From an uncultured Nitrososphaeraceae archaeon (lineage in GTDB: Archaea; Thermoproteota; Nitrososphaeria; Nitrososphaerales; Nitrososphaeraceae), in assembly GCA_963729045.1 (NCBI GenBank), contig CAVSMN010000015.1:139474-203473 (forward strand): DNA of 64,000 nt, read 5' to 3'. The notes beneath the pieces were generated by a model. The model was given only the letters and a program-made list of their open reading frames with translations. It ran no database searches and was not told where the DNA came from. The position numbers and the translations under genes were made by a program. Shown here piece by piece: positions 7,815 to 55,541 of the stretch. Within the stretch, counting starts at the first letter, position 1; each line of letters opens with the position of its first letter.

Positions 7815-8270
7815 TTATTTTTGCTTTTTTCTATTTGCATTAAGAAATTCTTCTAGTCTTTCTAGCGTTTCGGAATGTAGGTGATGCTCTATGCCCTCGG
7901 CATCTGAGTTTGCAATATCCTCTCTCACACCTATGAAAGTAAAGAACTCTGTCAATAATTCATGCTTTCTTCTAATATTTTGGGCGACATTTGTCCCTTG
8001 TTGGGTTAATCGAACACCTCTGTATTTTTCATATTCTAAATATCCTGTGGTATCTAATCTTCTCATCATCTTGGTAACACTAGGGGCCGAGACATTCAAA
8101 CATTCGGTAATATCAACACTGGTAGCATATCCTTTTTGTTGGACTAGTTCGTAAATAATCTCAAGATAGTCTTCCATCCTATCTGTACGTTCCTTTCTCT
8201 GTGAACTATTGACCTTTTTAATAGAGTCGATTATTGTGTTTTCTCCAAAAGATGAAGTATTATTTGACAC
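7815..8270 (-). CDS. mntR: DtxR/MntR family metal-dependent repressor
   Basis: MEDYLEIIY, VSAPSVTKM HTH, YRGVRLT, RKHELL and AEGIEHHL. Confidence 0.92.
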   Translation of the reverse strand: MSNNTSSFGENTIIDSIKKVNSSQRKERTDRMEDYLEIIYELVQQKGYATSVDITECLNVSAPSVTKMMRRLDTTGYLEYEKYRGVRLTQQGTNVAQNIRRKHELLTEFFTFIGVREDIANSDAEGIEHHLHSETLERLEEFLNANRKKQK

Positions 8271-8277
8271 TTTCTAG

Positions 8278-8311
8278 TTCACCTAGTTAGTTATATAGAA
8301 ACCAAGGTTTG
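8278..8311. promoter_or_regulatory. Candidate DtxR/MntR operator pair upstream of mntR
   Basis: TTCACCTAGTTAG (8278-8290) and AAACCAAGGTTTG (8299-8311) resemble the two boxes upstream of the multicopper oxidase gene. Confidence 0.55.
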
Positions 8312-8337
8312 ATAAAAAACTTTGCAAGACCATCACA

Positions 8338-26490: not shown

Positions 26491-27372
26491 TTAACCAATT
26501 ATGAATTCTGAAGAATCTATTTTTACTCTTGGAAATTCTGGTTTCATACTTTCCAATTTTTTTAAAATAATATAAGATATTGCCCAATTTCGAAAATGTT
26601 TTACGTTTGCAGGTATGATATACCAGGGTGCCCATTTCCTGTTGCATAAACTTATTACTTTTTCGTAGGCATCCATGTATTTACCCCAATTACGATGACT
26701 TACTAAATCACTTTCTTTTATTTTCCACTGTTTTGTAGGGTCCTGTATTCGTTCTTGGAGTCTCTTTTTCTGTTCATCTTTGCTAATATTTAAAAAGAAC
26801 TTTATTATGGTAACATTATTTTCTGACAAATATCTCTCAAAATCATTGATTTGGTTGTACCTAAGATTCAATTGATCCTTAGAAACTAGATTGTTTACGC
26901 TAGGTTCTATAATGTCCTCATAATGAGAACGATTAAAAATTGCTATTTGACCTTTTGAAGGAACTTCGATATGAATTCGCCAAAGATAGTCATGAGATAA
27001 TTCTGTTTCATTAGGAACCTTAAATGACTTTACATAACAGTTTTGGGGATTTAATGCTTCCATCACTTGACGAATTGTTCCATCTTTTCCTGAGGCGTCA
27101 GCTCCCTGTAAGATAATTAATAAGGATTTACTATTGGCTGCGAATAGCTTGTATTGTAATTCTGATATCCTTTTAGAAAATTGTTCCATTTCTGTCAACA
27201 TCTCAATTTTACTTTTATTCCCGCTATATTGCGGATCCCAATCCTTTAATTTTATCTGATTTGCAGAGGATTTGGTTGGCTTTACTAAAAATTTTCTAAA
27301 AGGATCCATGACTGATCCAGATAAAATGATACTGGATTTAAATCTGTATCTGCCATGCATTTTATAAAACAT
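26491..27372 (-). CDS. ppk2: Polyphosphate kinase 2 family (class III-like)
   Basis: QGADASGKDG, HDYLWR, FNRSHYED and APWYIIPAN.K. Confidence 0.92.
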   Translation of the reverse strand: MFYKMHGRYRFKSSIILSGSVMDPFRKFLVKPTKSSANQIKLKDWDPQYSGNKSKIEMLTEMEQFSKRISELQYKLFAANSKSLLIILQGADASGKDGTIRQVMEALNPQNCYVKSFKVPNETELSHDYLWRIHIEVPSKGQIAIFNRSHYEDIIEPSVNNLVSKDQLNLRYNQINDFERYLSENNVTIIKFFLNISKDEQKKRLQERIQDPTKQWKIKESDLVSHRNWGKYMDAYEKVISLCNRKWAPWYIIPANVKHFRNWAISYIILKKLESMKPEFPRVKIDSSEFIIG

Positions 27373-27750
27373 TCAGAAGAATTGGCTACTTGGAAAGTAT
27401 CTTGCTAAAAAGTGCAGAAAATGATAAAGTTATCTTTTATCTTTTTAAAACTTGAACTTGATCTCTATTAAAAAATATATAATTAACTACTACTAACGAA
27501 TATTGTAAATATAAAAAATATTCCCAATGAAAATAATTTTGTTAATTGTTATCCTACTTCATTAGTCCATTAATATTTTTTAAAGTATTAGAGGTCTAAT
27601 CTTAAGGTCATGAAGGTGTTGAATACTTAGATGCGAATTTGCAACGAAATCTACAATCATATCATTTATGACAAAACAATGCCTAAAGCAACGATTAAAC
27701 TAGTAAATGAAAGCAAATATTTAGATAATATAAAATATTGACTATTATTT

Positions 27751-28274
27751 ATGCGAATTTCACCAGAAATGACAAAAGCAATTAATGAACAAATTTCTTA
27801 TGAAGCCTCGTCCGCGAATGCATATATTGCAATCGGATCATGGTGTGAGAGAACTGGATATGACGGTAGTGCAGCTTTCTTCTTTGAACAAGCTAGCGAA
27901 GAAAACCAACATATGCTGAGGTTCATTCATTATCTCAACGGTGCTGGTGCAGAAGCGATTGTTCCTGCAATAGATAAGCCTCAAAATAGCTTTGAATCAC
28001 TTAAATCTGCATTTGAATTTGGTCTACAAGGTGAGCAAACCGTATCCAAATCCATTTATGAGTTGGTGGATATGGCTGGAAAGAAAAAGATTATTCTACT
28101 TACTCATTTTTGCAATGGTTTGTAACCGAACAGATAGAGGAAGAGACATTATTTCAAACAATTCTCCAAAAATTTGATTTACTCGGTGGTGACAAATTGG
28201 CTATTTATCAGATCGATCAGTCTCTTTCTTCTATCAGATCCCAGATCGTGAGTAAGCAAGCAAAGCAGGGATAA
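27751..28274 (+). CDS. ftnA: Ferritin (non-haem), frameshift near 28085
   Basis: NEQISYE..S...Y and EENQHM; the shifted frame gives DYSTYSFLQWFVTEQIEEE to a TAA at 28272-28274. Confidence 0.9.
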
Positions 28275-29607
28275 TCCTTATAGATGTAAAAATTCCAATT
28301 TATCTTTTTTAGTAATTCTCAGCTGGAAGTATTTCATTAACAAAAAATTTTGAACTCAAAATCTTTATTTTAGCCTCTTTTCTAGTAATCTTGTCTTACG
28401 CAATTTATTAATGTGTGTATTTTAATTGCTCTTCACTAACTCAATAAACAGATAGATTTCAGAGTCAATAAACATTTTAGACAATGAGTAGTGATTCGTT
28501 GCATTACCATTGATTACTTTTTTGAGTTTGAACATTAGACCTATATCCGATAGCATCCAAATGAACCGCTCAATCAACCTTGAATAATACTTGGACGAAT
28601 CATCCATATAATTACCTGTGAACTAGTAAGCTCGAGTGATCTCATATCAAGATTATTAATAAAAATATATGCCTCGAAACGTAAATTTGATGGCACTGTA
28701 AGAAAAAATTTAGTAGAACTATGTGAATGCGAACTCGGCATAATGAATACTAGTTCATTCTGGAATGTCCATGTATTCAATAACGAAATTGAGAAGGAAG
28801 CGGATAACAAGAAATTTCGTGATGTCAAAGTGGATGAAGTAGATGGGGTTGATCAGGATTATTTAGATGAGCAAATTAATATGTGATTCTTATTGGAAAA
28901 GATATTAAAAAATTTCAAAACTTAAGACTTAATCGGATAAAACTGAGAACGAAAAAAATCAGATTTTTACTGATTCGCTATTTGAACACAAAATAACACC
29001 AACGATTTAGTCCAAATCTCTGAATTACACACTGACTTTTGAAGCTCACTGAGAACCAAATTTAATTTTGTAAATTAATGCTTATCAAAATATTATGAAA
29101 ATACCTCCATTATGCCGCGTCTTCGTTAAAAAATTTAGTAAAAAACAACCACTGGATTAAAAAAAGAAACCAAATTTAGACAAAACCATATTGCTGAGAA
29201 TAATTCTATATATTCGTTTTTGCACTCAGATTTCTACAGAAGAACGGTATAAGGCAGTTTCTTCTACTTTCGCTAATAGGTCTATATTTAAGGAACCCTT
29301 GAAGAGTTATTTTGTAAAATTATTCTAAAGCCTTTCAAATAAAATTAAAAATATGACAATCATTAATTCTAGTTAATTACGTTATACTCTTCCGTTCTCT
29401 TACCTCGATAAAGTTGGTATTTGATGCTGGGCATTAGAGTCCAGTTTTTATCGTTTTCGATTACAAGTGTAATGGTTGATTGATTGCAAAAAATTGGATA
29501 GGATTTTTACCCTTTGTCAATATCTGAATAATAATTTAAAGTTCAATAGTTAAAAGTATGTAACATACACTAGAAGCTCTTAAACGAGATGCATCTGTGC
29601 AAATATC

Positions 29608-30471
29608 ATGAGTCTCAACATTGCGGTAATTATTAAATTAGAACCGGATTTTTCTGACGGAAATGTAAGTTATAATCCGGATGGGACATTAAACAGAGCA
29701 GAAACTAAAACTATTTTGGGACATCATAGTGCAATTGCATCACAAGCTGCCTTTTATGCTAAAGTAAAGTATGGTGCGCGTATATCTATTGGGACTATGG
29801 GTCCGCCAATGGCCGAATTGGCTCTTGATCAATCACTATTATTATCTGACGCTGAAGAATTGCATCTATACAGCGACAGATCGTTTGCAGGTGCAGATAC
29901 TCTGTCTACAGCAGAGGTTCTAAAAACAGGGATATCCAAGATGAATGATGGAAAATCAATGGATATTGTATTTTCTGGCTTTAGAGCATCAGATGGTGAA
30001 ACAGGTCAGACTGGTCCTCAAACGGCCTGGAAATTGGGTTTTACTTTCTTAGGTAATGTTATTAGCTACGAAATAGATATTGAAAAACGAGTAATAACTG
30101 CTGTCCGCCTTGTTTCATACGGAAATTATAACCTGATAGAACAGGTGCAGGCACCTCTACCCGTTTTTATTGCTATAGATCCATCTTACAAATCTCCTTT
30201 TATGACAGTTTCTCAAAGATTAAGCGCATCAAGATATCAAAAAGAAGCCACGATAAGATCGAGTAATTATAAATCAATTTTGAAAGTATTTAATGCTAAA
30301 GAATTGGGAGTTGATCCAAAATTAGTAGGGTTGCCTGGTTCACCTACAATTGTATATAAAGTGGAAAAAATTCCAAAAATAAAATCAAATAGGAGTGCAC
30401 AGACCATTGAGAATATTGATACTGGTGAAATCTCTAACATTCTTGAGAAAATCCATGAAACAATTACATAA
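29608..30471 (+). CDS. fixA: Electron transfer flavoprotein beta subunit (FixA-like)
   Basis: TMGPPMA, SDRSFAGADT, GFRASDGETGQTGPQ and GLPGSPT. Confidence 0.9.
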   Translation: MSLNIAVIIKLEPDFSDGNVSYNPDGTLNRAETKTILGHHSAIASQAAFYAKVKYGARISIGTMGPPMAELALDQSLLLSDAEELHLYSDRSFAGADTLSTAEVLKTGISKMNDGKSMDIVFSGFRASDGETGQTGPQTAWKLGFTFLGNVISYEIDIEKRVITAVRLVSYGNYNLIEQVQAPLPVFIAIDPSYKSPFMTVSQRLSASRYQKEATIRSSNYKSILKVFNAKELGVDPKLVGLPGSPTIVYKVEKIPKIKSNRSAQTIENIDTGEISNILEKIHETIT

Positions 30472-30496
30472 ACAATGTGAGTGTGTGAATGAGTGA

Positions 30497-31832
30497 ATGA
30501 GCGTGAAAGAAATGAATGAAAATATGAACAAGACAATAGATCAAACTGCTGCTTTGACGAAAGAGAAAGAGAAGGAGGTTGAGGTTAAGGAGGTTGACAA
30601 CATCAATAAAATGAATGAGACAAGTAAATACAGAAACTTGTATGTTATTATCGAACAAGTGGATGGTAAAATTATTCCTGTTGGTCTTGAAATGTTATCA
30701 GAAGCAAGGAGGCTTATCGATGATTTTAATAAAAAATATTCACTAAATGAAAAGGTAATTGCAGTAATTCTAGGCAATAATATTAAACATTTATGCAAGG
30801 AATTGATTTATTTTGGTGCAGACGCTGTCATTTTTGCAGACGACCCAAAACTAAATTATCATATAAATAAAATCTATACAAAAATAATTGTTCAAATAGC
30901 AACCAATGCAAAATATATCGAAAAGATATCGCCAGAATATTCTAAAGCGTTTAAACGACCTAGATACATGTTCTTTGCTGCCGATAGTACAGGACGACAC
31001 TTGTCATCCACAGTTCTGGCAGAACTAGAATCTGGATTGGCCTCTGATATTAATAAACTGGTGATAGAAGATATCGACTTTAGACATGAACATAAAACAA
31101 AGGGACAAATGTTAACTTTTGAAAAAACACTTAATGATGTATAGACCCGATTTCTCCGGATTTCTTTGGACTACTATTCTTTGTCTAGATAACAAAAATC
31201 CCGAAATAAAGAGGGATTATCATCCTCAAGCATGCAGTATTATTCCTGGTGTATTTGAACCATTAGAAAGAGATGTGTCTAGGACTGGGATAATTGAAGA
31301 ATGTATTCCAGAGTTTGATACAAAAGATCTTGAAATTAAAGTTCTAAGTAGAAATATTCTTAAAGACACGATCGATTTTGGCAGCTATAAAACAATAATA
31401 AGTTTTGGAAGGGGTATAAAAGAGGCTCCAGAAGAGAACATAAAGTTAATAGAAAAACTTGCAAAACTATTAAACGCTGAAATTGGTATATCACTTCCCA
31501 TTTCAAAAAAACCTTTTAAGTTAAGTGACAAAATGAATTCGCTCTATATTACTCCAGAAAGAGTAATAGGAACAAGTGGTCAAAAAGTCGAACCCACTAT
31601 TTATATCGCATTGGGTATTAGCGGGGCCACTCAACATCTAGCAGGAATGAAAAATTCAGGATTTATTATAGCAGTAAACCCTGATGAAAATGCTCCAATA
31701 AAAAATGAATGCGATGTTTTCATTAAGGGAAGAATAGAGGATGTTTTACCAATCATGATAGAAGAGCTTGAGCGAGAAAAAATGACACAAACAAAAGAAG
31801 AAGAAGGTAGTGCCGTAGTTGGAACAGTTTGA
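30497..31832 (+). CDS. fixB: Electron transfer flavoprotein alpha subunit (FixB-like), frameshift near 31133
   Basis: GRHLSSTVLAELESGLASD, YRP, SFGRG, IGTSGQKV.P.IYIALGISGATQHLAGM and NPDENAPI. Confidence 0.9.
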
Positions 31833-33699
31833 TGTTGTAATAATTGGCGGCGGTTCTGCAGGTCTAGCTGCATTAAAGCAACTATCCTCTCAGGGAATTC
31901 AGGCAGTATTGATAGAAGCAGGATCTCCTGTAGGTTCAAAGAACGTCTCAGGTGGTATACTGTATTCAAAAAATCCTCAAACTGGTAAGGTTTATAATGT
32001 TGATGATATATTTGAAAATTTCCTACAGGAAAAACCATGGGAAAGACAAATTACAAAATATATCCTAAATTGTGTATCTAAAGACAAAGTCCTGTCAATC
32101 GATTTGACAGATTCCCATGATTATCAATCTAATTTTGGTTGTTCTGTGTTATTAAATAAATTAAACTCTTGGTTTGCCAAACAATCTTTGGAGTCTGCGG
32201 AAAGAAATGGCGGAGGCATCGTAAGTGGAGTTCATGTTAGAAATATCAGATGGGATGATGAAAAAGGCAAAACAATTATCGAAACAGACGAGTTAGATGA
32301 TTTTGAAGCCAAAGCTGTTATTGCTTCTGACGGAGTAAATTCAGAGATTGCAGAAATTACAGGAGCACGACAAAAATTTTCACCCCCGGAGTTATATCAA
32401 GGGGTAAAGGTTGTTATCAAATTACCAGAAGAAATAATAGAAGAAAGATTTAATCTAAATCCTGGGGAAGGAACAGCCCATATTTTTGCTGGCGACGTAA
32501 CTCTCGATCACATTGGGGGAGGTTTTTTATATACCAATCTTGATTCTCTATCTGCGGGAGTTGTATATCATTATGACTCTTTGATTTCAAATCCAACAGG
32601 ACCAAACAATCTTGTAAACGCGCTTCTAAATAATCCATTTGTCAAAGAATATATCAAAGATGAAGTAGCCTTAGAACCCTATCCAGACAAAACCTTATCT
32701 AAGATGGAACAATTACGCATTAAATTTGCAGTCAATAAACAGATAAAAAAATGGGAGAAATTGAGATTTGATTATTATTCGCATGAGGGCAAAAAGAGAT
32801 TTCTTGAAGATAAAGAATTCAATTCTATCGAGGAGGCAAAGTCAAAAATGGATGCTATTCACAAGGAATTACTTGAAAAATATAATACTAGATTTGAAAC
32901 AGATTATGTAGAATTAGAGTATAGTACGAAATTAATTCCGGACGGAAAACGCTGTAGAATGAAAAAGCCCTATATCAAAAACATATTATTCATAGGTGAT
33001 GCTGCAGGAAGAGGATTATTCATTGGACCACGAATCGAGGGATTAAATGTAGGAATTGATGATGCAGCAAGAGCATCTAACGCGATAAAACAAGCGTTAG
33101 AAAAAAATAATCTTGATATTACATCAAACTATTTGGGTGAGCTTTATTCACAGTCTGTCCAACAAAGTCCTTATACAAGGGATATGGAAAGGATAGACAA
33201 GTATTATATCAAAACAATAATCGATGCTGCAGGCAAGCAAATTCCACCCCAACAGATAGGCAAGTATGGATTTCTTTTTAAGTTGTTTCTAAATGATAAA
33301 TTAAGAAACGTGTCTATTGACATTGTTAACAAAATAGGGTACAATAATATGTTATCACTAATAGAATCAAAAGAGACATACATAAATACTCCAATAAATC
33401 TCGCAGAAAAACTCGGTACCAAAACCATCTCTGAATATTCAATATCTATTCCAGAATTATCTCAACGGATATCGAGTTTAAGTTACAATGATGATCCACA
33501 AAGTCATATCAAAATAACAAACTCAAAAAGCGAATTTATGAAAAAAATGGTTACACTTTGTCCAACTAAATGCTACAGTCTTGAAGGAGAGGATGTAGTT
33601 TTGCAACATGAGGGTTGCATAGAATGTGGGACATGTTCCCCAGAAACAGAATGGAGACATCCAAGAGGTGAAAAAGGAATACAATACAAGTATGGATAA
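31819..33699 (+). CDS. fixCX: FixC-FixX fusion (ETF:quinone oxidoreductase plus ferredoxin)
   Basis: GGGSAG FAD motif, GSKNVSGG, SDGVNS, GGGFLYTN, LEYS..IP and IGDAAG. C-terminal CPTKCY...CIECGTC...WRHPRGEKGIQYKYG matches the FixX signature. Confidence 0.9.
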   Translation: MEQFDVVIIGGGSAGLAALKQLSSQGIQAVLIEAGSPVGSKNVSGGILYSKNPQTGKVYNVDDIFENFLQEKPWERQITKYILNCVSKDKVLSIDLTDSHDYQSNFGCSVLLNKLNSWFAKQSLESAERNGGGIVSGVHVRNIRWDDEKGKTIIETDELDDFEAKAVIASDGVNSEIAEITGARQKFSPPELYQGVKVVIKLPEEIIEERFNLNPGEGTAHIFAGDVTLDHIGGGFLYTNLDSLSAGVVYHYDSLISNPTGPNNLVNALLNNPFVKEYIKDEVALEPYPDKTLSKMEQLRIKFAVNKQIKKWEKLRFDYYSHEGKKRFLEDKEFNSIEEAKSKMDAIHKELLEKYNTRFETDYVELEYSTKLIPDGKRCRMKKPYIKNILFIGDAAGRGLFIGPRIEGLNVGIDDAARASNAIKQALEKNNLDITSNYLGELYSQSVQQSPYTRDMERIDKYYIKTIIDAAGKQIPPQQIGKYGFLFKLFLNDKLRNVSIDIVNKIGYNNMLSLIESKETYINTPINLAEKLGTKTISEYSISIPELSQRISSLSYNDDPQSHIKITNSKSEFMKKMVTLCPTKCYSLEGEDVVLQHEGCIECGTCSPETEWRHPRGEKGIQYKYG

Positions 33700-34095
33700 A
33701 TTCATCTCTCGGCCCTATTACGCCTTAAACTAATTTCATCTTCTGACCTGGTATATTTTATTTTACTTTGTTAAAACTCTAATTCCACTATTAAAGAAGG
33801 ATAACATTTATCTATTTTCCTATGTTTTTTTAGCTTTGTAAATAAGATAGTTATTATAGTAACTTTGAAATGATTTGACCGTTAAGGAATTAATCAACAA
33901 AGAGAATCGAGCATGGGGGTTAACAATAAAAGAAAAGCTATTTTTTGCTAGGAAAAATCAGCTCTATCATGTGTAATATTTTAAGACATTTTTTGACTTA
34001 TTATTTAACAAATGATAAATAAATCTGTTAGCTATATATCAATTGTAAACAAAAATTGCAGACAAGTTTATCTTTTTTAATGTTGTCATATATCA

Positions 34096-35592
34096 ATGCA
34101 AGTAGAAAAAACCTTTAAAAATTCTGAAATGGATGTGATAAATGAATTAAAAAGATCTGGGATAAAATGGGTACGACTAAATTTTTGCGACCCTTTTGGA
34201 TTTCTTCATCAAATATCTGTAAACAGCACTGAAATTACAGAGGATGCATTTAAGCAGGGATTGCCTAGACTGGATGGTAGTTCCATAAAAGGATTCAAAG
34301 AGATATATGAATCAGACATGCTACTCAAACCAGACCCTTCCACTTTTGCAATCTTGCCAGAATATTTTGACAAGAATAATCATAACAGGAGAAATTATGC
34401 CTACCCTTCCATGGCTGCGCGTATGTTTGTTGATATTTATGACGGATATGGAGGGAGAAGGTATTCCAGAGATTGCAGATATATAGCACAAAAAGCAGAA
34501 GAATTCTTAAAGAACAAAGGTTTTGAGAAAAGTTATTGGGGACCTGAATTAGAATTTTTTGTATTCAATAAAATATCACTTCTTCCAAGTCCTATGTCTT
34601 CGGTAAATTGTTCTGGTGGATCAGGATATTCAATAGAGTCTGGAGAAGCACCATGGAATTCTTCAGGTGGTAATGATTATACGATCCCATTTAAAGGAGG
34701 ATATTTTCCCGCACCTCCAGCCGACAGTTTAACAGATTTAAGAGACGAAGTATCAGAAACACTGCAAGAATTTTTTGGAATACAAGTTGATGCACATCAT
34801 CATGAGGTTGCAACAGCCGGACAGTGTGAAATTCAAATGGTGTATGACGATCTTACTAGAATGGCGGATAAAGTTGTTACCTATAAGAAGACCGTAAAAG
34901 AAGTCGCTGCTAAACGTGAAATGATTGCAAACTTTATGCCCAAACCAGTTGCCCTTGACAATGGTTCAGGTATGCACGTAAGCCAGAGTTTATGGACAAA
35001 AAAGAAATACGGGCATGACGCAAACATGTTCTTTGATGTTTCCGACGATTACGCAGAACTAAGTCAAACAGCACATTACTATATTGGAGGCATAATAGAT
35101 CACGCTAGAGCACTATGTGCTTTAACAAATCCAACTACTAACTCATATCGAAGATTAGTCCCCGGCTTTGAGGCTCCAATTAACGTGGCGTGGAGTAAAA
35201 TGAATAGGTCAGCTAGCATCAGAATACCGTCTCATTATAAAAATATGGAGAAGCAAAAAAGAATAGAATATAGGACACCTGATCCGAGTTCAAACATTTA
35301 TCTTGTGGAGTCGGCTTTATTACTAGCAGGACTTGACGGAATCAACAAAAAAATATCTCCTCCAGACCACGTGGATAAAGATATCTACAAACTCACAGAG
35401 CAAGAAAAGAGAGAATATGGGATTAGAAAATTGCCTACCTCTTTGTTAGAAGCTATCGAGTCACTAGAATCTGATGCTGATTTTTTGAATCCTGTATTTG
35501 CAGCCGACTTTATTGAGATGTATTGTCAGATTAAAAAGGATGAGCATGCAGCAGTAGCCGCAATACCTTCGCCTAGAGAATTCTATATGTAA
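34096..35592 (+). CDS. glnA: Glutamine synthetase type I
   Basis: DGSSIKGF, GPELEFF, KGGYFP, HHHEVATAGQCEI, FMPKP..DNGSGMH, SYRRLVPGFEAP, NRSASIRIP and RIEYRTPDP. Confidence 0.96.
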   Translation: MQVEKTFKNSEMDVINELKRSGIKWVRLNFCDPFGFLHQISVNSTEITEDAFKQGLPRLDGSSIKGFKEIYESDMLLKPDPSTFAILPEYFDKNNHNRRNYAYPSMAARMFVDIYDGYGGRRYSRDCRYIAQKAEEFLKNKGFEKSYWGPELEFFVFNKISLLPSPMSSVNCSGGSGYSIESGEAPWNSSGGNDYTIPFKGGYFPAPPADSLTDLRDEVSETLQEFFGIQVDAHHHEVATAGQCEIQMVYDDLTRMADKVVTYKKTVKEVAAKREMIANFMPKPVALDNGSGMHVSQSLWTKKKYGHDANMFFDVSDDYAELSQTAHYYIGGIIDHARALCALTNPTTNSYRRLVPGFEAPINVAWSKMNRSASIRIPSHYKNMEKQKRIEYRTPDPSSNIYLVESALLLAGLDGINKKISPPDHVDKDIYKLTEQEKREYGIRKLPTSLLEAIESLESDADFLNPVFAADFIEMYCQIKKDEHAAVAAIPSPREFYM

Positions 35593-35606
35593 GAGAATTC
35601 TATATG
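35575..35606 (+). repeat. 15-bp direct repeat spanning the glnA stop codon
   Basis: AGAGAATTCTATATG at 35575-35589 and 35592-35606. Confidence 0.9.
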
Positions 35607-35625
35607 AGGAATGTTTAGGTAATAT

Positions 35626-37092
35626 ATGTCGTATCCTAAAGATATATTAGAAATCAAAAGAAATCTTCTAAAAGAGGTTTCTTCTACCTCCGTTGTTGCC
35701 AAGAATGATAATTTAAATTTCTTATATTACGATCAATCAAAAATTATTCTAGATGCAAGAAAAGCATTTGACGGTCTTATTCCTTATTCAGGGCTAGGCG
35801 CTAATTCCACAAATGATTATTTTTCTTCCATCGATCTCATTGGTGGATCTATTAAAACAGACGTTGATTATAGTAATGTCGATCTATCCTTAACTATTGG
35901 AGGCCTTTATTCAAACAGAAAAATAACCACGGATATTCCGTTTTTTGTCTCTGGTATGAGCTATGGGTCATTAAAACTTCCTGCAAAAATAGCATTGCAC
36001 CTAGCATTAAATCAGCTTGCTGATGACGGAATAAGAGTTATAATGAATACTGGGGAAGGAGGAGCACTACCTTGGGAAGTTCATGATTTTGACAATGGTG
36101 ATCCCAATATAACGGAATATGTATCTAGGCTACTTAAGGAACACAATTTAGACAGTATAGATAGAGAACAGCTTTTTCGCAGAAAGTATCCATTGGTGGT
36201 TCAATATGCATCAGGAAGATTTTGGAAAGATCCTGACTACTTGCTCAATGCAGATGCAATAGAGATCAAGATAGGACAAGGTGCAAAAATAGGACATGGT
36301 GGATTGTTACCAGGCTCAAAAGTGACAGAATTAGTGGCAGAAAACCGTGGTATACCTCCCTATAAGTCGGCTCATTCCCCATCAAGACACCTTGATATCT
36401 TGGGACCAGAAGATCTGGTTGCAAAAATTCTTGAGTTAAGAGAGCTTACTAACTGGAATGTTCCTATTATTGTAAAAGTGGGGGCATCAAGAGTTCATGA
36501 CGATATTGCCATAATACTCAAATCTTGTTCAGATGCAGCTGCTATTGATGGTTACGTAGGAGGTACTGGGGCTGCTCCTTGGGAGATTCGAGATAGTATA
36601 GGTGTAAACACAATACCTGCAATAAGGTTGGCTAAAGATGCAATAGACAATTATTATTCAGAGAGGGATATGGAAGAGTTTAAACTAATTGCTCATGGTG
36701 GCATTTGGGATTCAAAACGAATCGCAAAATGCATCGCTCTTGGGTCAAATGGAGTAGGTATAGGTACAGGGTTTCTCATATCGATGGGATGCACATTGGT
36801 TCAGGATTGTTATACCAATACTTGCCCTGCAGGATTAACTGGGTCGTATGAAAAATTAAACATACAATCCAGTGTAAAGAGAATAGTCAATTATATTAAG
36901 GGAACAAGGATCGAACTGCAAAATATCGTAGGTTCTTTAGGAAAGAATAGAATACGGGATCTCAACAAAGAGGATCTTTTTGCGACTGATGAGATATCCA
37001 ACTTGGTATCAGGATTATCTACAAACGATACGAATTACCATAACAAGATAAAGAGTAAGAATATACAGACACTAGGATGTATCGGAGATTAA
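35626..37092 (+). CDS. gltB2: Glutamate synthase FMN-binding subunit (archaeal split type)
   Basis: SGMSYGSL, NTGEGG, QYASGRF, EIKIGQGAKIGHGGLLPG.KV, DGYVGGTGAAP and the [3Fe-4S] motif CTLVQDCYTNTCPAG. Confidence 0.93.
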   Translation: MSYPKDILEIKRNLLKEVSSTSVVAKNDNLNFLYYDQSKIILDARKAFDGLIPYSGLGANSTNDYFSSIDLIGGSIKTDVDYSNVDLSLTIGGLYSNRKITTDIPFFVSGMSYGSLKLPAKIALHLALNQLADDGIRVIMNTGEGGALPWEVHDFDNGDPNITEYVSRLLKEHNLDSIDREQLFRRKYPLVVQYASGRFWKDPDYLLNADAIEIKIGQGAKIGHGGLLPGSKVTELVAENRGIPPYKSAHSPSRHLDILGPEDLVAKILELRELTNWNVPIIVKVGASRVHDDIAIILKSCSDAAAIDGYVGGTGAAPWEIRDSIGVNTIPAIRLAKDAIDNYYSERDMEEFKLIAHGGIWDSKRIAKCIALGSNGVGIGTGFLISMGCTLVQDCYTNTCPAGLTGSYEKLNIQSSVKRIVNYIKGTRIELQNIVGSLGKNRIRDLNKEDLFATDEISNLVSGLSTNDTNYHNKIKSKNIQTLGCIGD

Positions 37093-37097
37093 TAAAA

Positions 37098-38222
37098 ATG
37101 AATATCAAAGAAAAATTTATAATACGATCTTCAATCTTGGAATTAGCAGAAACAGGTCTTCCTCGCAATGTTTCCATAGATGATAAAATAAGACTTGAAC
37201 AAAAAAATGGTGATGAGCCAAAAACTGAAGACTTGTGGAATTGTATTACTGCATTAGGTGCACAACTATCGCGACCCCCATACGATCCATATCGAGAAAT
37301 AATTAATCTTGATATATCCATAGGTCGAAGACAATGTCCCAACAAAGTTATTCTATCAATGCCTTTGATAATTTATGATAATGACATGCAAATAGATGAA
37401 ACGACGTTAGAGTCACTCCACGTTGCGTTAAATAAGCTAAAGAACTTTAACACAAACTTGGGGCTTATTTCAGAAAAGAGAATAAAAAATAGAAATTACC
37501 CACATTTTAGAAGATTAAATGAAAGAACGGCAGTATTAGAGGAAGAAGAAGAAGACGATTATGGCACCGATGGCCTTGTATTTCAATGCAACGATGAAAA
37601 GTCCCTACAATTTCTGACTGATATAAGAAAAGAATTTAATGGGCCAATCCTTGTTGAGGTGGATAATTCTTTTGAAAGATTTCTTGGACCATTGTTAGAC
37701 GCAGGAGCTGATGGGATTATTGCAAATACTATCAAAATAACAAATAAATCAAAATACAAAGAAATGCATGCAATAAAAGTTATACACGATATAAGATGCG
37801 CGATAGACCAGTACTATGCTGGAAAGGAAAATGATGGGACAGTACTAATAGTTGCTGGAGACGTTAATAATACTGGAAGGATTGTAAGAGCTGCTGCATT
37901 AGGTGCAGATATCATTGGATACTCCACAAGCTTATTGATTGCTAATGCTGCTCATCACTATGAGGTTCAATCCAACCTGGATACAGTATCCGATAGGATA
38001 TACAAACACGTGTTGGCTACTAAGGGAGAACTTAAAGGAGTACCTGCCGCATTAGGATATAGTAATTTCTATAATCTTTCATCCTCAGATTTGCGTACAT
38101 CAAGTATTGAGGCAAGTATACAGGCAGATATTGCAATAGAAGGAACAAACAAAACTTATCGTCAAATAATTGAGGATTTTATATATAAGTATACGACAGA
38201 AGAACAACTGAGATCTGAATAA
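37098..38222 (+). CDS. Degenerate paralogue of the glutamate synthase FMN-binding subunit
   Basis: Retains AQLSRPPYDPYRE..LDISIG, LIVAGDV..GRIVRAAALGAD and ALGYSNFYNLS..DL. Lacks EIK.GQGAK and the Fe-S cysteines. The start is either 37077 or 37098. Confidence 0.75.
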   Translation: MNIKEKFIIRSSILELAETGLPRNVSIDDKIRLEQKNGDEPKTEDLWNCITALGAQLSRPPYDPYREIINLDISIGRRQCPNKVILSMPLIIYDNDMQIDETTLESLHVALNKLKNFNTNLGLISEKRIKNRNYPHFRRLNERTAVLEEEEEDDYGTDGLVFQCNDEKSLQFLTDIRKEFNGPILVEVDNSFERFLGPLLDAGADGIIANTIKITNKSKYKEMHAIKVIHDIRCAIDQYYAGKENDGTVLIVAGDVNNTGRIVRAAALGADIIGYSTSLLIANAAHHYEVQSNLDTVSDRIYKHVLATKGELKGVPAALGYSNFYNLSSSDLRTSSIEASIQADIAIEGTNKTYRQIIEDFIYKYTTEEQLRSE

Positions 38223-38286
38223 ATCTCAAAAACAGGAACTAGTTGAATATCTGTTGATAAATAGGTAATGGAGGGGTGGAAGGAAC

Positions 38287-39165
38287 ATGTGTGGAATTTG
38301 TGGGATTATATTAAAAGAACATACCGATTCAAATTTCTTAGTAGGTGCATTGCTTTACAAGATGATGGAAAGCCAGCAAGTAAGAGCACAAGATAGCGCC
38401 GGAATAGCCATTTATAATAATGACGAGAATTGTCAAAGTAATTCGTTTTCTAATCTTGCCTATCTTATGAAGTGTGAAAATGAATACGAGCTGAGGGAAG
38501 AAAGGACTACTACAGGATTTAAATATTCAAAAGAATCCGACCAACTAGTTTCCAGGTTAAAGAAAGACGAAAACGTTTCAATTATGGGTTATACTAAAGA
38601 AATGAAGTTGATAAAGAATGTGGGTCTAGTGAGAGACCTTGATAAAAAATACAATATAAGATCAATGAAAGGGACTCACGGGATTGGACATTTGAGAATA
38701 GCGACAAGCAGTAACGTCGATCCAAGCAATGCTCATCCATTTAGTACTACTGTTATGCCAGATATTGCAGTAGTACATAACGGAGAAATAGCAAATTATT
38801 CCAAATTAAGAAATATGCTAGAAATTAAAGGGTACCCCTTCTATTCTAGCTGTGATTCAGAGGTAATAGCAATATTTCTTGTTGATCAGCTATTACAGCA
38901 TGGCGACCTAAAAAGGGCGCATGATGAATTTATCCAAAAAGCTGATGGACCTTTTACATATATTGCTTCTACCAATCGTACATTGTCATTAGTAAGGGAT
39001 AGATTTGGAACAAGAAAGGGTATTGTGGGGTATAATCCTGGGTCAGATGGGATTCCTGCATTTTGGGCAATGGCGACGGATCTATCTGCATTGGATATCA
39101 TCGGAGCGAATAAAGACGTGAAAGCAGCGTCACCAGGTAAGTCGCTGATTTTTGCCATAGAATAA
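38287..39165 (+). CDS. gltB1: Class II (Ntn) glutamine amidotransferase subunit of glutamate synthase
   Basis: N-terminal MCGICG nucleophile, DSAG, GHLRIATS, NAHPF, HNGEIANY and DSEV. Confidence 0.9.
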   Translation: MCGICGIILKEHTDSNFLVGALLYKMMESQQVRAQDSAGIAIYNNDENCQSNSFSNLAYLMKCENEYELREERTTTGFKYSKESDQLVSRLKKDENVSIMGYTKEMKLIKNVGLVRDLDKKYNIRSMKGTHGIGHLRIATSSNVDPSNAHPFSTTVMPDIAVVHNGEIANYSKLRNMLEIKGYPFYSSCDSEVIAIFLVDQLLQHGDLKRAHDEFIQKADGPFTYIASTNRTLSLVRDRFGTRKGIVGYNPGSDGIPAFWAMATDLSALDIIGANKDVKAASPGKSLIFAIE

Positions 39166-39202
39166 ATAAATTAATAAGGCATGAATCAACGACCAAAGAT
39201 TA

Positions 39203-40127
39203 ATGTGTTACATGTTAGATATAGATGAACTTGGGTTAATAGTAAAAGAAATAGGTTCAAAAATATCTAATCCGGATACGCAATTTGAAAGGGTTAACAC
39301 TATATTTGAGCAACATTATGGGATAAAACTCCCAGATGGTATAAAACGTGCATCGATTGAAAAATTTGGAGATATTGTAAGCTCCCCACTGATAATGGAA
39401 CGAGCAATAAATTTAATCATAAGTAAAAAGGTGATCGAGGGCGAAACTAAGATCATAATAAAAAACCCACGGTCCCTATACAGAATAGGAATACTCAGTT
39501 TTGACAAGACAATAAAACTCGATCTAGTGGTAGATGGTAACGTAGGTAATTTTTTTGGAGCATTTTGCAATTTTGATGGCACATGGACAGTAAAAGGGAA
39601 CAGCGAGAATGGGTTGGCAGATAAAGGTTATAAGGGCAAAATAATTGTAGAGGGCTTTGCCACGGAATTGGCATGTCAAAATAATCAAGCAACTGAATTT
39701 AGTACCGGTGTGGACGTCTTGATCAAAAAAGGATGTATGGAAAGGGCGATGGGACAGGCAAGGGGTGGAAGACTGGTAACTTTTGGCGCAGGATATAATT
39801 CGGGGTTGTATATGTCAGGTGGTATATTGCTTAATTTGGGATTGCCAGGTGAATTATTTGGTCCAGGGATGGTTGGAGGCGTAATTTATTCTCCCAAACG
39901 GAACTACTGCAGCCGAAGGTGCACAAATTGATAGATTGTCAGTAGAAGATTACTCAATAATAAGAGAAACACTGCTGGTATTTGAAAAAGAACTGTGTAT
40001 TGAACAATTAAATGATTTTTCAATAGAAAACCCCATAATATCCCTAACGAATAAATCAATGGATGATAATCAAAAATACGATATGCGTGACTTTATCAAA
40101 ATAGTGCCTGATTTAAGATCACAATAA
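39203..40127 (+). CDS. gltB3: Glutamate synthase GXGXG beta-helix subunit, frameshift near 39900
   Basis: GNVGNFFG, G...RAMGQARGG, GAGYNSGLYMSGG and GPGMVGG. Removing one C continues the frame SPKGTTAAEGAQ into ORF 39936-40127. Confidence 0.88.
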
Positions 40128-40556
40128 CCTGAAATCTTCTTTCGCAGTAATTAAGACAATGTGGGTATTGGTTCTATCGATATATGGAAGTGATAAATCA
40201 TGCTTGACAAAATCACTTAACTCCGAACGATTCTTAAACTTTGCAATGATTATTAAATCAGTCAAGCCTGTAATATCATAAACTGCACAAACATTAGAAA
40301 ATTTTGAAATATGTCTTTGTACCTCAATTATTTTATTCTTAATGGCAGTAACTTCAATTACTGCTGTCAAATCAAACCCAATTTTTGCATAATCTACCAT
40401 TGCCGAATATGATTTTATTACCTCATCTCTTTCGAGTCTTGATATTCGATTAAGTACGGTAGGTGGAGAAATTCCCAATTCAAACGCTATTTTTCTATAC
40501 GAACTCCTAGCATCTGTTAGCAGTCTTCTTAATATTTTTGAATCTATTTCATCCAT
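40119..40556 (-). CDS. Lrp/AsnC family transcriptional regulator
   Basis: DEIDSKIL..L..DARSS, HTH ISPPTVLNRISRL and YDITGLTD. Confidence 0.95.
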   Translation of the reverse strand: MDEIDSKILRRLLTDARSSYRKIAFELGISPPTVLNRISRLERDEVIKSYSAMVDYAKIGFDLTAVIEVTAIKNKIIEVQRHISKFSNVCAVYDITGLTDLIIIAKFKNRSELSDFVKHDLSLPYIDRTNTHIVLITAKEDFRLL

Positions 40557-51892: not shown

Positions 51893-53428
51893 ATGAATTT
51901 TTCTGATTTAGAAGCCAAGAGGATAACTCATCTTCTAGGTGGTGGAAAAGAGAAACTAGAAGAACAGAGAAAAAAGGGTCAATTGACAGCGACTGAAAGA
52001 ATCAATGCCTTATTTGATACAGGCAGTTTTGAGGAAATAGATCCTTTTGTAATTCACAATTGTCATGATTTTGGAATGGAAAATAAAAAAATTCTAGGTG
52101 ACGGTGTTATAACAGGTTATGGAAGAATAGATTCTCGTTTAGTCTATTCATTTTGTCATGACTTTACAGTCTTAGGGGGTTCACTCGGTCTTAGTTTTGC
52201 ATCAAAGATATGTAAGGTAATGGATCATGCATTAAAACAAGGGGTTCCAATAATAGGTATAAACGATTCTGGAGGTGCAAGGATTCAAGAAGGGGTCGAA
52301 AGCCTAGGTGGTTACGCAGATATATTCCACAGAAATGTTAGAGTCTCTGGCATAATTCCTCAAATATCTTTGATAATGGGCCCTTGTGCAGGAGGTGCAG
52401 TTTATTCTCCCGCTTTGACTGATTTTATAATAATGACAAAATCAGCATACATGTTTGTCACTGGTCCAGATGTTGTGAGACAGGTCTCCAATGAAAATGT
52501 TACATCTACAGATTTAGGGGGCGCTTACATACATAATGAAAAAAGTGGTGTGGCTCATTTTGTTGCAGATGATGAATATGATTGCTTTGAAATATTGAAA
52601 AAATTGCTTTCATTTATTCCGTCCAACAATCTGGAATCATCACCAAGGGTCAAATCAATGGATAGTTCCAATCTTCTGGATGAAAGCCTTGATTCAATTC
52701 TTCCTTCCGACTCACATATGTCATATAGTATGGAAAATGTAATTAGAAAAGTAGTTGATAAAGGAGACTTTTTCGAAGTCCAAAAATTCTGGGCTAGAAA
52801 TATCATAATTGGTTTTGCTAGGTTGGATGGTAACGCTGTCGGTATAGTTGCCAATAACCCGGAAATTTTAGCCGGAGTTTTAGATATAGATTCTTGCAAC
52901 AAGGCAGCAAGATTTGTAAGATTTTGTGACTGCTTCAACATTCCTATAATAACTTTCGTTGATGTTCCTGGATTTCTTCCTGGTACAGATCAGGAATGGA
53001 GGGGAATAATAAGACATGGTGCAAAGCTGTTATTCGCATTCTCGGAAGCTACTGTACCTAGACTTTCAGTAATCACAAGAAAGGCTTATGGTGGAGCATA
53101 TGATGTAATGAATAGTAAACATATAGGAGGAGATTATAATTTCGCTTGGCCAAAAGCTGAGATCGCTGTTATGGGTGCTGAAAGTGCATGTAATATTATA
53201 TTTAGAAAAGAATTATCTATTTCTGAAAATAAAGGCAAAAGAAGATCTGAGTTAGTATCAGATTATGAAAAAAAATTTTCAAATCCATATATTGCAGCTT
53301 CTAAAGGTTATATTGACAATGTAATAATGCCCCGAGAGACTCGGCAGAAACTGATTTCTGCTCTAAATGCCATCAATAGGAAAAGAGAAGATTTACCAAA
53401 AAGAAAGCATGGAAACATGCCTATATAA
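51893..53428 (+). CDS. pccB: Acyl-CoA (propionyl/acetyl-CoA) carboxylase carboxyltransferase subunit
   Basis: DFTVLGGS, DSGGARIQEG, GPCAGGAVYSPALTD, DVPGFLPG, RKAYGGAY and RKHGNMP. Confidence 0.93.
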   Translation: MNFSDLEAKRITHLLGGGKEKLEEQRKKGQLTATERINALFDTGSFEEIDPFVIHNCHDFGMENKKILGDGVITGYGRIDSRLVYSFCHDFTVLGGSLGLSFASKICKVMDHALKQGVPIIGINDSGGARIQEGVESLGGYADIFHRNVRVSGIIPQISLIMGPCAGGAVYSPALTDFIIMTKSAYMFVTGPDVVRQVSNENVTSTDLGGAYIHNEKSGVAHFVADDEYDCFEILKKLLSFIPSNNLESSPRVKSMDSSNLLDESLDSILPSDSHMSYSMENVIRKVVDKGDFFEVQKFWARNIIIGFARLDGNAVGIVANNPEILAGVLDIDSCNKAARFVRFCDCFNIPIITFVDVPGFLPGTDQEWRGIIRHGAKLLFAFSEATVPRLSVITRKAYGGAYDVMNSKHIGGDYNFAWPKAEIAVMGAESACNIIFRKELSISENKGKRRSELVSDYEKKFSNPYIAASKGYIDNVIMPRETRQKLISALNAINRKREDLPKRKHGNMPI

Positions 53429-53565
53429 AGCCATAATTTAATATGCTTGATCAATTTATTGGTACAAAATGGTTTTGTAACTAAGCCATTATGTAATATG
53501 CTGGTGAATACCAAAATTTTTTGGTATAGAATAATTTTAATTTTACTTTGTGACTTAGTTTCAAA

Positions 53566-55089
53566 ATGGAGAGAATACTTTTAGCTAATAGAGGAGAAAT
53601 TGTGATAAGAGTGGCCAAGACATGTCGTAAACTAGGCTATTCTCCATGTGGAATATATTCTGATGCTGACAAGGATAGCTTGCATATAAAACACTGTGAC
53701 AGTGTAGAAAATATCGGGGGAAATTTACCCAATGAGAGTTATTTGAATATGATGAAGATAATTGATGCAGCAAGAAAAATGGATTGCACATTCATACATC
53801 CAGGATATGGTTTTCTTGCTGAAAAATCAGAATTTGCTAATTTGTGTAACAAAGAAGGATTGGTCTTTATTGGCCCTTCTGCTGATGTATTAAAAATTTC
53901 GGGAGATAAAGTGCTAGCTAAAGAGATATTATCAAACGTTGCTACTACTATAAAGGGTAAAGAAGTATCTGATATAGATGAGGCATTGGAATTTGCAGAA
54001 GAATTAGGATATCCGGTAATTATAAAAGCTGCAAGAGGAGGAGGTGGGAGGGGACTTCAAATTATAGATACTCCTCAACAATTGACAAAATTATTAAAGT
54101 TCTCTATAAGAGAAGCGTTATTAAGCTTTGGTTCAGGTAGAGTATATCTTGAAAAATATATACAAAATCCAAGACATATAGAAGTACAGATAATAGGTGA
54201 TCATTCGAGAGTAATCCATCTAGGAGAAAGAGAATGTACTATTCAGAGGAGACATCAAAAATTAATCGAAGAAACACCCTCGCCAGCATTAGATGACGTT
54301 TCTAGGGAGAGTTTGGTAAAAACTGCGGTTGAAATTATGGAAAAAATTCGATATGATAACGCCGGGACGGTCGAATTTCTATTAAAGAATGGTTCATTTT
54401 ATTTTATGGAGATAAATTCAAGGATACAAGTAGAACATCCTATAACAGAAGCCGTTACTGGAATTGATATAGTAGAACAACAACTTAACATATCATGTAG
54501 GGATGGGATGACACTTGAACAAAATGATATAAAAGCCAGTGGACATGCCATTGAGTGCAGAATAAATGCTGAACATCCTATTAGCTTTACACCATATCCT
54601 GGTTTGGTAAAGAATTATACCCCTCCTATTGATTCACAAAGTATTAGGATAGATAGTTCATTGTATACAGGATATAGCATCCCTCCATTTTATGACTCGT
54701 TAATTGCCAAAGTAATAGTCAGGGCAGAAAATAGAAAAGAGGCAATTGAAAAAATGAAAAATGCTCTCTTATCTTTCAGAATTTCTGGCATTCCATCAAC
54801 TATACCTTTTCATTTATCTGCTTTAAATGATGATCGATTTCTAACCGGAAATTACGATACTGCTTTTGTTGAAAAAATGAAATCATATTCAGAAAAGGAT
54901 GGAGAAATTGCAGCAATAGTATTTGAAAATATGTTGAAAAGACGAGGATCATCAGGTGAGTCCTTTAAAGAAGACGAAACAAAACAAGAAAATGAGCAGA
55001 GACAACCATGGATTTTAAGCAGATATGAAGAATTTCTTAAGTTACAAGGAAATTATAATTTAGAAAATTCTATGAGATGGGTCAAATGA
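53566..55089 (+). CDS. accC: Biotin carboxylase subunit
   Basis: ANRGEI, HPGYGFLAE, GGGGRG, ERECTIQRRHQK, EINSRIQVEH and YDSLIAK. Confidence 0.95.
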   Translation: MERILLANRGEIVIRVAKTCRKLGYSPCGIYSDADKDSLHIKHCDSVENIGGNLPNESYLNMMKIIDAARKMDCTFIHPGYGFLAEKSEFANLCNKEGLVFIGPSADVLKISGDKVLAKEILSNVATTIKGKEVSDIDEALEFAEELGYPVIIKAARGGGGRGLQIIDTPQQLTKLLKFSIREALLSFGSGRVYLEKYIQNPRHIEVQIIGDHSRVIHLGERECTIQRRHQKLIEETPSPALDDVSRESLVKTAVEIMEKIRYDNAGTVEFLLKNGSFYFMEINSRIQVEHPITEAVTGIDIVEQQLNISCRDGMTLEQNDIKASGHAIECRINAEHPISFTPYPGLVKNYTPPIDSQSIRIDSSLYTGYSIPPFYDSLIAKVIVRAENRKEAIEKMKNALLSFRISGIPSTIPFHLSALNDDRFLTGNYDTAFVEKMKSYSEKDGEIAAIVFENMLKRRGSSGESFKEDETKQENEQRQPWILSRYEEFLKLQGNYNLENSMRWVK

Positions 55090-55541
55090 AGTCAGAGGTT
55101 AACGGAACAACTTATGAAGTAAAAATGCAGGGGGACAAAATTCTTATAAATGAAAAAACTATAGATTTGACCAAAATAAAAGAAAATGAATTTGTTATAG
55201 ATTCAAAGAGGTTTTGTCTTGATTTTTATGAGAGAACAGGAATAGGAAATGAGGGTAAACAACAATCTTTCTTAATCATAAATGGCATGGCATACACGAT
55301 ATCTAAAATAAATATTGACCAAGAAACCATTCGGGAATTGCGTGCACCCATGAGTGGAAATATAATTGATATTTATGTGCAACTTGGATCATATGTTAAA
55401 ACGGGTGAATCTCTTTTAGTTCTTGAAGCAATGAAAATGCACAATGAAATCAAATCTCCAAGAGATGGAAAGATAATAGACATATTGTTCAACAAACAGC
55501 AACCTGTAAAAGCGGGAGAAATAATACTAATATTTGAATAG
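55086..55541 (+). CDS. accB: Biotin carboxyl carrier protein
   Basis: APMSG and the EAMKM biotinylation motif. The start is either 55077 or 55086. Confidence 0.93.
   Translation: MKSEVNGTTYEVKMQGDKILINEKTIDLTKIKENEFVIDSKRFCLDFYERTGIGNEGKQQSFLIINGMAYTISKINIDQETIRELRAPMSGNIIDIYVQLGSYVKTGESLLVLEAMKMHNEIKSPRDGKIIDILFNKQQPVKAGEIILIFE

Follow-up and report, generated by a model that had tools for sequence, protein, structure and literature searches.

A fixABCX operon beside a four-polypeptide GS-GOGAT cassette in a Nitrososphaeraceae archaeon: dedicated module or inherited gene order?

A stretch of 64,000 nucleotides from an uncultured Nitrososphaeraceae archaeon (contig CAVSMN010000015.1, hereafter the window) carries the genes fixA, fixB and fixCX for a complex of the FixABCX type, built on an electron transfer flavoprotein (ETF). 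They are followed on the same strand by a cassette for ammonia assimilation: glnA for a glutamine synthetase (GS), then gltB2, P381, gltB1 and gltB3 for a glutamate synthase (GOGAT), closed by a convergent lrp regulator gene. FixABCX serves nitrogenase in diazotrophs. The question raised by this locus, and put forward as a possibility in a sequence-only reading of it, is whether the complex feeds low-potential electrons to GS-GOGAT here. The answer that we favor, and hold to be probable though far from certain, is that these are two separate, known gene sets, and that their adjacency in this genus is inherited gene order, not the sign of a dedicated module. The source genome spans 2.85 Mb in 22 contigs and is 87% complete, and the window has a GC content of ~33%.

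Both gene sets are already described for soil ammonia-oxidizing archaea (AOA). Several of the papers cited here (PMC3379541, PMC6657660, PMC10432482, PMC10734219 and PMC6085437) are drawn on in excerpt, and statements that rest on them apply to those excerpts. The genes fixABCX were reported from Nitrososphaera and from fosmids of soil AOA, without an assigned role (PMC3379541). A four-subunit GOGAT, called NADPH-dependent, was described in Candidatus (Ca.) Nitrosocosmicus arcticus and Ca. N. oleophilus (PMC6657660), and the NADPH-dependent designation is repeated in a review (PMC10432482). In addition, GOGAT loss was inferred in the AOA ancestor (PMC7554672), and the legend of a figure lists GOGAT for a different clade from soil (PMC11131427). 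The view that this lineage relies mostly on GS and glutamate dehydrogenase leaves the published Nitrosocosmicus GOGAT out of account. Full-text literature searches on AOA fixABCX and on EtfABCX with glutamate synthase, supplements excluded, returned no paper connecting this complex with the synthase.

Distribution and gene order of the two gene sets

The two sets are distributed very differently across 151 Nitrososphaeraceae genomes from 18 genera. The fixA gene was found in 140 genomes and in all 18 genera (137/148 genomes when the unpublished G035, G077 and G099 are left out), compared with 24 genomes and five genera for gltB2, taken to represent the cassette. The closed genome G032 is an example of fix without the cassette. 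Within the window's genus, 21 genomes beside the window's own divide into nine with both sets, five with fixA only, seven with neither and none with the cassette alone. In a sample of 401 genomes from across the phylum, no relative outside the family exceeded 48% identity, and the match rate in the sister family was 1/56. Genome G125 contains two different fixA fragments on separate contigs (L066, L067) that are 71% and 51% identical to that of the window; it may have two fix operons or be a mixed bin.

The unit that recurs in genera g1, g5 and g12 is glnA-gltB2-P381-gltB1-gltB3, mostly with lrp where loci are long enough, and it recurs without fix. GOGAT genes were also found on partial contigs of g18 and g4. 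The lrp gene lies beside the cassette in g1, g5 and g12, in varying position and orientation, and transposase remnants adjoin the cassette in two loci. In g12, fix and cassette are on different contigs in 11/11 genomes; they are clearly far apart in G012 and G078, and two of the 11 split cases concern contigs between 121 kb and 1.8 Mb long. In closed Nitrososphaera-like genomes, fix is found beside uvrABC and a peroxiredoxin gene, as on a published fosmid (PMC3379541). The coupling proposed from the sequence alone had been made contingent on linkage in relatives, and here it fared poorly: fix and cassette turned out to be largely unlinked and independently distributed.

Adjacency was seen in two genera, with nine genomes resolved and one more inferred; the layouts of G125 and G140 are left out of these counts. 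The fix genes are directly upstream of the cassette on the same strand in G000, G043, G073 and G136. This tandem order occurs with an insertion of ~3.5 kb between fixCX and glnA in G132 (L050 3781-7251), where the inserted DNA encodes a caspase-domain protein and a papain-family peptidase, and, by contig overlap, in G148 (L068, L049). The operon is divergent from the cassette in G019, G096 and G064, with an acyl-CoA dehydrogenase gene between them in the first two and transposase fragments in the third. The tandem and divergent layouts are not independent events, because a single inversion of the fix operon separates them. In G005, which belongs to another genus, a g12-type cassette has its lrp gene 1.7 kb from the 3' end of fixCX. 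This genome had been a candidate for a cassette without an ETF and was dropped as such, as its cassette contig ends inside the fixCX 3' end. No cassette gene was found within 2.5 kb after fixCX in G042.

In the gltB2 tree, the window's genus groups together, and G005 and a G125 sequence fall among g12 sequences. Placing the four g12 rows in one gltB2 clade was rejected by the approximately unbiased (AU) test (p-AU 2e-56), for a group that was named after the tree was seen. The FixCX tree leaves the window's genus unresolved and a single clade was not rejected (AU p 0.30); on these grounds, independent acquisition of fix within the genus was set aside. The GltB2 sequences of G125 (L053, g4) and G059 (L059, g12) are nearly identical, with tree branches of about 0.005, which points to either a recent cassette transfer or a problem of binning or taxonomy.

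The flavoprotein complex, the glutamate synthase and its electron donors

FixA, FixB, FixC and FixX are encoded together in three adjacent genes with FixC and FixX fused, and the same operon is found in 10 loci of relatives. The motif ASDGETGQTGP, in which the sequence-only reading had seen a likeness to bifurcating-type ETFs, is indeed present in FixA. Nearest solved relatives and further motifs place the ETF with the bifurcating type. All five solved-structure matches of FixA at E 0.001 or better are bifurcating ETFs (7KOE, 5OL2, 6FAH, 4KPU and 7QH2), the best being 7KOE chain A (E 1.7e-28). An intact FixB from a close relative (L013) has its best solved match in 7KOE chain B (E 1.1e-38), and the same five bifurcating complexes are the top five of 15. 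Its match to human and Paracoccus ETFs is confined to the C-terminal domain that binds flavin adenine dinucleotide (FAD). The best solved matches of FixC and of the FixX domain are 7KOE chains C and D. A grouping of FixA and FixB with AMP-binding or other non-bifurcating ETFs, which would have spoken against coupling, was not seen among these nearest solved relatives.

ETF group definitions were taken from the portions of PMC10734219 and PMC6085437 used here. Mutagenesis showed that ferredoxin reduction requires the Arg of the RPxFGG motif, which sits beside the bifurcating FAD (R140 in Thermotoga maritima); in the small subunit, group-2 ETF motifs include GxxSPTxV and RxGV (PMC10734219). The Arg is kept, as RPDFSG, in the intact L013 FixB and in the second fixB open reading frame (ORF) of the window, where the frameshift described below sits four codons upstream of it. 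FixA keeps the loop as GLPGSPTIV, and the RxGV position reads RAET, with the Arg alone retained.

Characterized FixX proteins have two [4Fe-4S] motifs (PMC6085437). The FixX domain in the window (33400-33696) has five cysteines, in CPTKC and CIECGTC, enough for one [4Fe-4S] cluster and not for two. Compared with 7KOE chain D, it lacks the first CxxxCxxxxC block and, in the second motif, the final Cys. The five-cysteine tail (CPTxC, CxECGTC) is conserved in 10/10 loci from six genera, so that the domain in this family is, as its cysteines predict, a single-cluster variant. By its sequence kinship the ETF is of the bifurcating type, with one defining feature of bifurcating EtfABCX-FixABCX, the two-cluster FixX, missing in all 10 loci. 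Bifurcating activity of the complex is predicted.

The GS of the cassette is one of three GS paralogues in the genome, 49% identical to one other GS locus and 41-47% to the other. Within the GOGAT, GltB2 aligns to residues 907-1161 of Azospirillum brasilense GltB, and the alignment takes in the CX5CX4C motif that ligates the 3Fe-4S cluster; the three cysteines (C389, C395 and C400) are invariant in 12/12 relatives. Because its first 300 residues are without cysteine, GltB2 has no extra ferredoxin domain. GltB1 has the N-terminal catalytic Cys and the other class-II amidotransferase motifs. The closest public records by GltB2, from Candidatus Nitrosocosmicus or Nitrososphaeraceae metagenome-assembled genomes, are 90-93% identical.

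The remaining protein, P381, had been called a GltB2 paralogue, and tblastn agrees, with 25-27% identity to GltB2 in five relatives (E 1e-6 to 1e-9). It matched no Pfam family at E 0.001. Its family gives weak matches to PF01645 (15/15 sequences) and to PF04898, the GOGAT central domain (7/15 at E 1 or better, best 0.0013). The predicted fold, from a model with a mean predicted local distance difference test score (pLDDT) of 62, resembles barrels dependent on flavin mononucleotide (FMN). A feature search (Atlas) points to the same FMN-barrel family, and a profile search against solved structures gave marginal TIM-barrel matches and nothing more. A complex of P381 with GltB2, predicted from alignments built in this analysis, scored 0.85 compared with 0.46 for the best control, a mark reached by 116/157 solved complexes and 2/215 mismatched pairs; three runs shared at least 90% of contacts, with a partner pLDDT of at least 84. 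P381 is probably a fourth subunit of the GOGAT, taking the place of the central domain. The four polypeptides would then correspond to the four domains of the GOGAT alpha subunit, and the enzyme would be of the ferredoxin type.

No gene for the NAD(P)H-linked subunit GltD is found in the cluster by ORF listing and family scans, just as the sequence-only reading had it. A gltD or a donor of the F420 type elsewhere, which that reading had named as a refutation, was not seen in family scans of the window's genome, at its completeness of 87%: these found no GltD-type Fer4_20 domain (PF14691) and no FrhB-type F420 input module. Among five other cassette-bearing genomes, Fer4_20 was absent from G043 (closed), G073, G078 and G005, and G012 gave one unlinked match. 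A 2-oxoacid:ferredoxin oxidoreductase is present. Ferredoxin is the likely donor of the GOGAT.

Gene layout, frame breaks and surroundings

The gene order given at the outset was confirmed by ORF listing and family scans, and the spacing between fixCX and glnA, put at about 400 bp from the sequence alone, measures 396 bp (Table 1). A scan of the spacer for bacterial-type promoters and terminators gave nothing usable, nor did an Rfam scan of the whole window.

Table 1. Coordinates and assignments of the fix genes, the GS-GOGAT cassette and the regulator in the window
Feature	Position	Strand	Assignment and supporting features
fixA	29608..30471	+	ETF small/beta subunit, 287 aa; carries GFRASDGETGQTGP and GLPGSPTIV; PF01012 68.6 bits
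fixB	30497..31832	+	ETF large/alpha subunit; two ORFs, 30497-31144 and 31119-31832; PF01012 and PF00766
fixCX fusion	31819..33699	+	626 aa; FixC flavoprotein:quinone oxidoreductase with C-terminal FixX-like ferredoxin domain; NF007542 FixC, NF011993 FixX
fixCX-glnA spacer	33700..34095		396 bp, AT-rich, oligo-T tracts
glnA	34096..35592	+	Type-I GS; passes equivalog TIGR00653, 516.4 bits vs cut-off 429.15
gltB2	35626..37092	+	GOGAT FMN domain; PF01645 276 bits; 3Fe-4S motif C389-x5-C395-x4-C400
P381	37077..38222	+	381 aa; TIM-barrel paralogue of the FMN domain, diverged and lacking the Fe-S cysteines
gltB1	38287..39165	+	Class-II (N-terminal nucleophile, Ntn) glutamine amidotransferase; starts MCGI; PF13522 and PF13537
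gltB3	39203..40127	+	GXGXG beta-helix subunit; called 39203-39931; PF01493 47.7 bits vs cut-off 32.5
lrp/asnC-family regulator	40119..40556	-	Convergent; PF13404 and PF01037

Three of the genes have broken or altered frames. The fixB gene is interrupted by one extra T near 31129. The base is absent in three close relatives (L013, L014 and L034) and in the two RNA-library contigs that cover the site (one from X15 and one from X16); the two DNA runs compared with the window have no contig covering it. In relatives FixB is intact at 427-442 aa, including 442 aa in the closed G043. A one-base difference at 38210, present in all contigs covering the site, alters the C terminus of P381, and another near 39893, likewise shared by all covering contigs and marked as a left-out base in those of X1, X5 and X15, truncates GltB3. 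The corresponding proteins of G043 measure 388 aa (P381) and 314 aa (GltB3), and its GltB3 aligns to the window in two frames as far as about 40124, so that the window's gltB3 would extend to about 40127. Other genes are also split: a topoisomerase (window 233-2543), a CitMHS/Na-sulfate-type transporter (59861-61619) and, elsewhere in the genome, a third GS (G000 contig C14:35785-36892). This suggests that single-base indel errors are frequent in this assembly. Since the window and genome hold these other split genes, and other contigs are without the indels, the breaks in fixB, P381 and gltB3 are probably assembly errors and not pseudogenes.

Both fix and cassette genes are represented among contigs of two soil RNA libraries (X15 and X16), with depths of 0 and 0.13 in the bin 33812-34212, where the DNA runs have 10.5 and 19.9. 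None of the RNA pieces listed crosses the spacer; the contigs come from metatranscriptomes that may contain DNA, and their depth is not a measure of transcription units or expression.

Upstream of fixA, a PPK2 gene and a ferritin/Dps-like gene occupy 26491-28125, a flank that is kept in close relatives. The ~1.5 kb in between (28126-29607) has a single ORF of at least 80 aa, an 84-aa ORF on the minus strand, and no Rfam match. Elsewhere, the window carries a metal cluster of a DtxR-type repressor, a ZIP transporter and a multicopper oxidase (7815-11386) and an acetyl/propionyl-CoA carboxylase operon (51893-55541).

Competing readings and relation to known systems

Under the reading that we favor, fixA-fixB-fixCX, an operon near-universal in the Nitrososphaeraceae, encodes an EtfABCX-type complex; in its closest solved relatives, electrons from NADH are bifurcated to quinone and ferredoxin. 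The cassette would be accessory and probably mobile, combining lrp, a dedicated glnA and a GOGAT made of four polypeptides: GltB1 as amidotransferase, GltB2 with FMN and the 3Fe-4S cluster, GltB3 as the GXGXG subunit and P381, a degenerate barrel, most likely as central domain. Electrons most likely enter the GOGAT one at a time, at the 3Fe-4S cluster, delivered by ferredoxin or another soluble carrier of low potential. FixABCX would be one plausible source of the reduced carrier, but its function would be broader and independent of GOGAT. Several observations weigh against keeping the two sets apart in this way. In the window's genus, fix and cassette are adjacent, in three layouts, in every genome with a resolvable cassette, and adjacency extends to a second genus with G005. 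All nine cassette genomes of the genus have fixA, and seven of 21 genomes lack both sets; such joint absence can come from one loss of adjacent genes. Among the routes sought, FixABCX is the sole recognizable one from NADH to ferredoxin, with no GltD-type or FrhB-type donor found, and no conventional ETF partner in the form of an acyl-CoA dehydrogenase was found in the window's genome. Finally, for the place given to P381, the predicted complex with GltB2 could stem from solved fused GOGATs that the model had learned.

Adjacency and the lack of another donor or ETF partner speak for a functional ammonia-assimilation module, in which electrons from NADH are bifurcated by FixABCX to quinone and ferredoxin and the GltD-less GOGAT draws mainly on the ferredoxin so reduced. 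The idea stays alive because adjacency is found in two genera, surviving rearrangements in one of them. The preconditions of the sequence-only reading also stand, namely a bifurcating-type ETF, a GltD-less GOGAT with 3Fe-4S ligands and the failure to find another donor; nor was the usual dehydrogenase partner found in this genome. However, distribution and synteny are mostly at odds with a dedicated module: fix is found in 140 genomes and the cassette in 24, all 11 g12 genomes keep them unlinked, the spacer is 396 bp or else up to 3.5 kb with unrelated peptidase-like genes, and the layouts within the genus are one inversion apart. FixX also lacks one of the two Fe-S motifs of characterized enzymes, and the literature search gave no paper making the link. 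We therefore regard a dedicated module as unlikely. The more specific proposal, that in Nitrosocosmicus-type archaea an oxygen-exposed EtfABCX with a fused, single-cluster FixCX uses NADH and quinone to reduce ferredoxin for the four-polypeptide GOGAT in a bifurcation-driven, high-affinity assimilation of ammonium, seems to us similarly doubtful. Alternatively, FixABCX could be mainly an ordinary ETF system, passing electrons from flavin dehydrogenases such as acyl-CoA dehydrogenase through FixCX to quinone, or in reverse to NADH, with no particular link to GOGAT. In G019 (L033 8415-9698) and G096 (L063 7776-9059), two species of the window's genus, an acyl-CoA dehydrogenase gene does lie immediately upstream of fixA in the same orientation. 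The same dehydrogenase occurs in 93/151 family genomes (a tally that includes the unpublished G035), and a single-cluster FixX is unlike the characterized bifurcating complexes. Yet within the genus the dehydrogenase is found in just two of 21 genomes, and the closed G014, G079 and G107 carry it far from fix; neither a dehydrogenase of the G019/G096 type nor PF02770 was found in the window's genome. The bifurcating sequence features, including the Arg needed for ferredoxin reduction in the cited mutagenesis (PMC10734219), also make this account distinctly unlikely.

Two further readings concern the cassette itself. P381 might oxidize a pyridine nucleotide or other cofactor and pass the electrons to GltB2, thereby replacing GltD. 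Its constant presence in the cassette, its FMN-barrel-like predicted fold and its predicted binding to GltB2 over a large interface would suit such a role. However, the family matches are very weak and the model has the low mean pLDDT given above, P381 has neither Fe-S ligands nor a recognizable nucleotide-binding domain, and the weak PF04898 matches fit a structural, central-domain-like role better; input through P381 is improbable. The cassette might also encode a gamma-glutamyl-amine pathway of the N-methylglutamate kind in place of GS-GOGAT. That pathway combines a GS-like ligase with three GOGAT-domain-like proteins (GmaS and MgsABC), a gene content much like a GS homologue accompanied by separate amidotransferase-like, FMN and GXGXG proteins. 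This assignment is highly improbable given that GlnA passes the type-I equivalog, compared with 217 bits against a cut-off of 469.6 for the type-III/GmaS-like TIGR03105, that GltB1 retains its catalytic Cys and class-II amidotransferase motifs, and that no dehydrogenase genes of that pathway are found in the window.

What is at stake differs between the readings. If FixABCX were coupled to GOGAT, it would gain a second physiological client besides nitrogenase. Coupling would also account for the way in which an aerobic nitrifier with little energy to spare covers the cost of GS-GOGAT, and it would point to a role for a fix operon known in soil AOA since 2002-2012 without one. Independently of coupling, work on nitrogen assimilation in AOA can build on the cassette as a constant set of genes that brings its own GS and a fourth subunit and is usually accompanied by lrp. 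Its occurrence in five genera is wider than stated in the excerpts of the 2019 and 2023 papers drawn on here (PMC6657660, PMC10432482), and no NADPH-binding subunit was found for an enzyme that the literature terms NADPH-dependent.

For the ETF, the closest known systems are Thermotoga maritima EtfABCX (7KOE) and Azotobacter vinelandii FixABCX. They have the same four parts, with 7KOE the best solved match for each, and the GxxGSPTxV loop and the RPxFGG Arg are retained here. In contrast to both, the FixC found here is fused to FixX and carries ~85 inserted residues, RxGV reads RAET, and FixX has five cysteines. The host also differs, as an aerobic ammonia oxidizer without nitrogenase, and bifurcation in it is predicted.

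For the GOGAT, the comparison is with the ferredoxin-dependent enzyme of cyanobacteria and plants (1LLW) and the alpha subunit of the bacterial NADPH-dependent enzyme (1EA0). The FMN domain aligns with theirs, CX5CX4C ligands included, the Ntn amidotransferase and GXGXG domains are also present, and a beta subunit is absent, just as it is from the ferredoxin-dependent enzymes. Unlike these enzymes, the one encoded here is split in four, in the order FMN, P381, amidotransferase and GXGXG, and only a highly diverged barrel represents the central domain. The GOGAT of four genes termed "archaeal type" in Ca. Nitrosocosmicus arcticus (NARC_80135-80138) and Ca. N. oleophilus (PMC6657660) is the same cassette, and the P381 homologue of N. 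arcticus is 83% identical. That enzyme is termed NADPH-dependent in the part of the paper used here, whereas an NADPH-binding GltD was not found in the present scans. Beyond that account, the cassette is seen here in four further GTDB genera, always with its own glnA and mostly with lrp.

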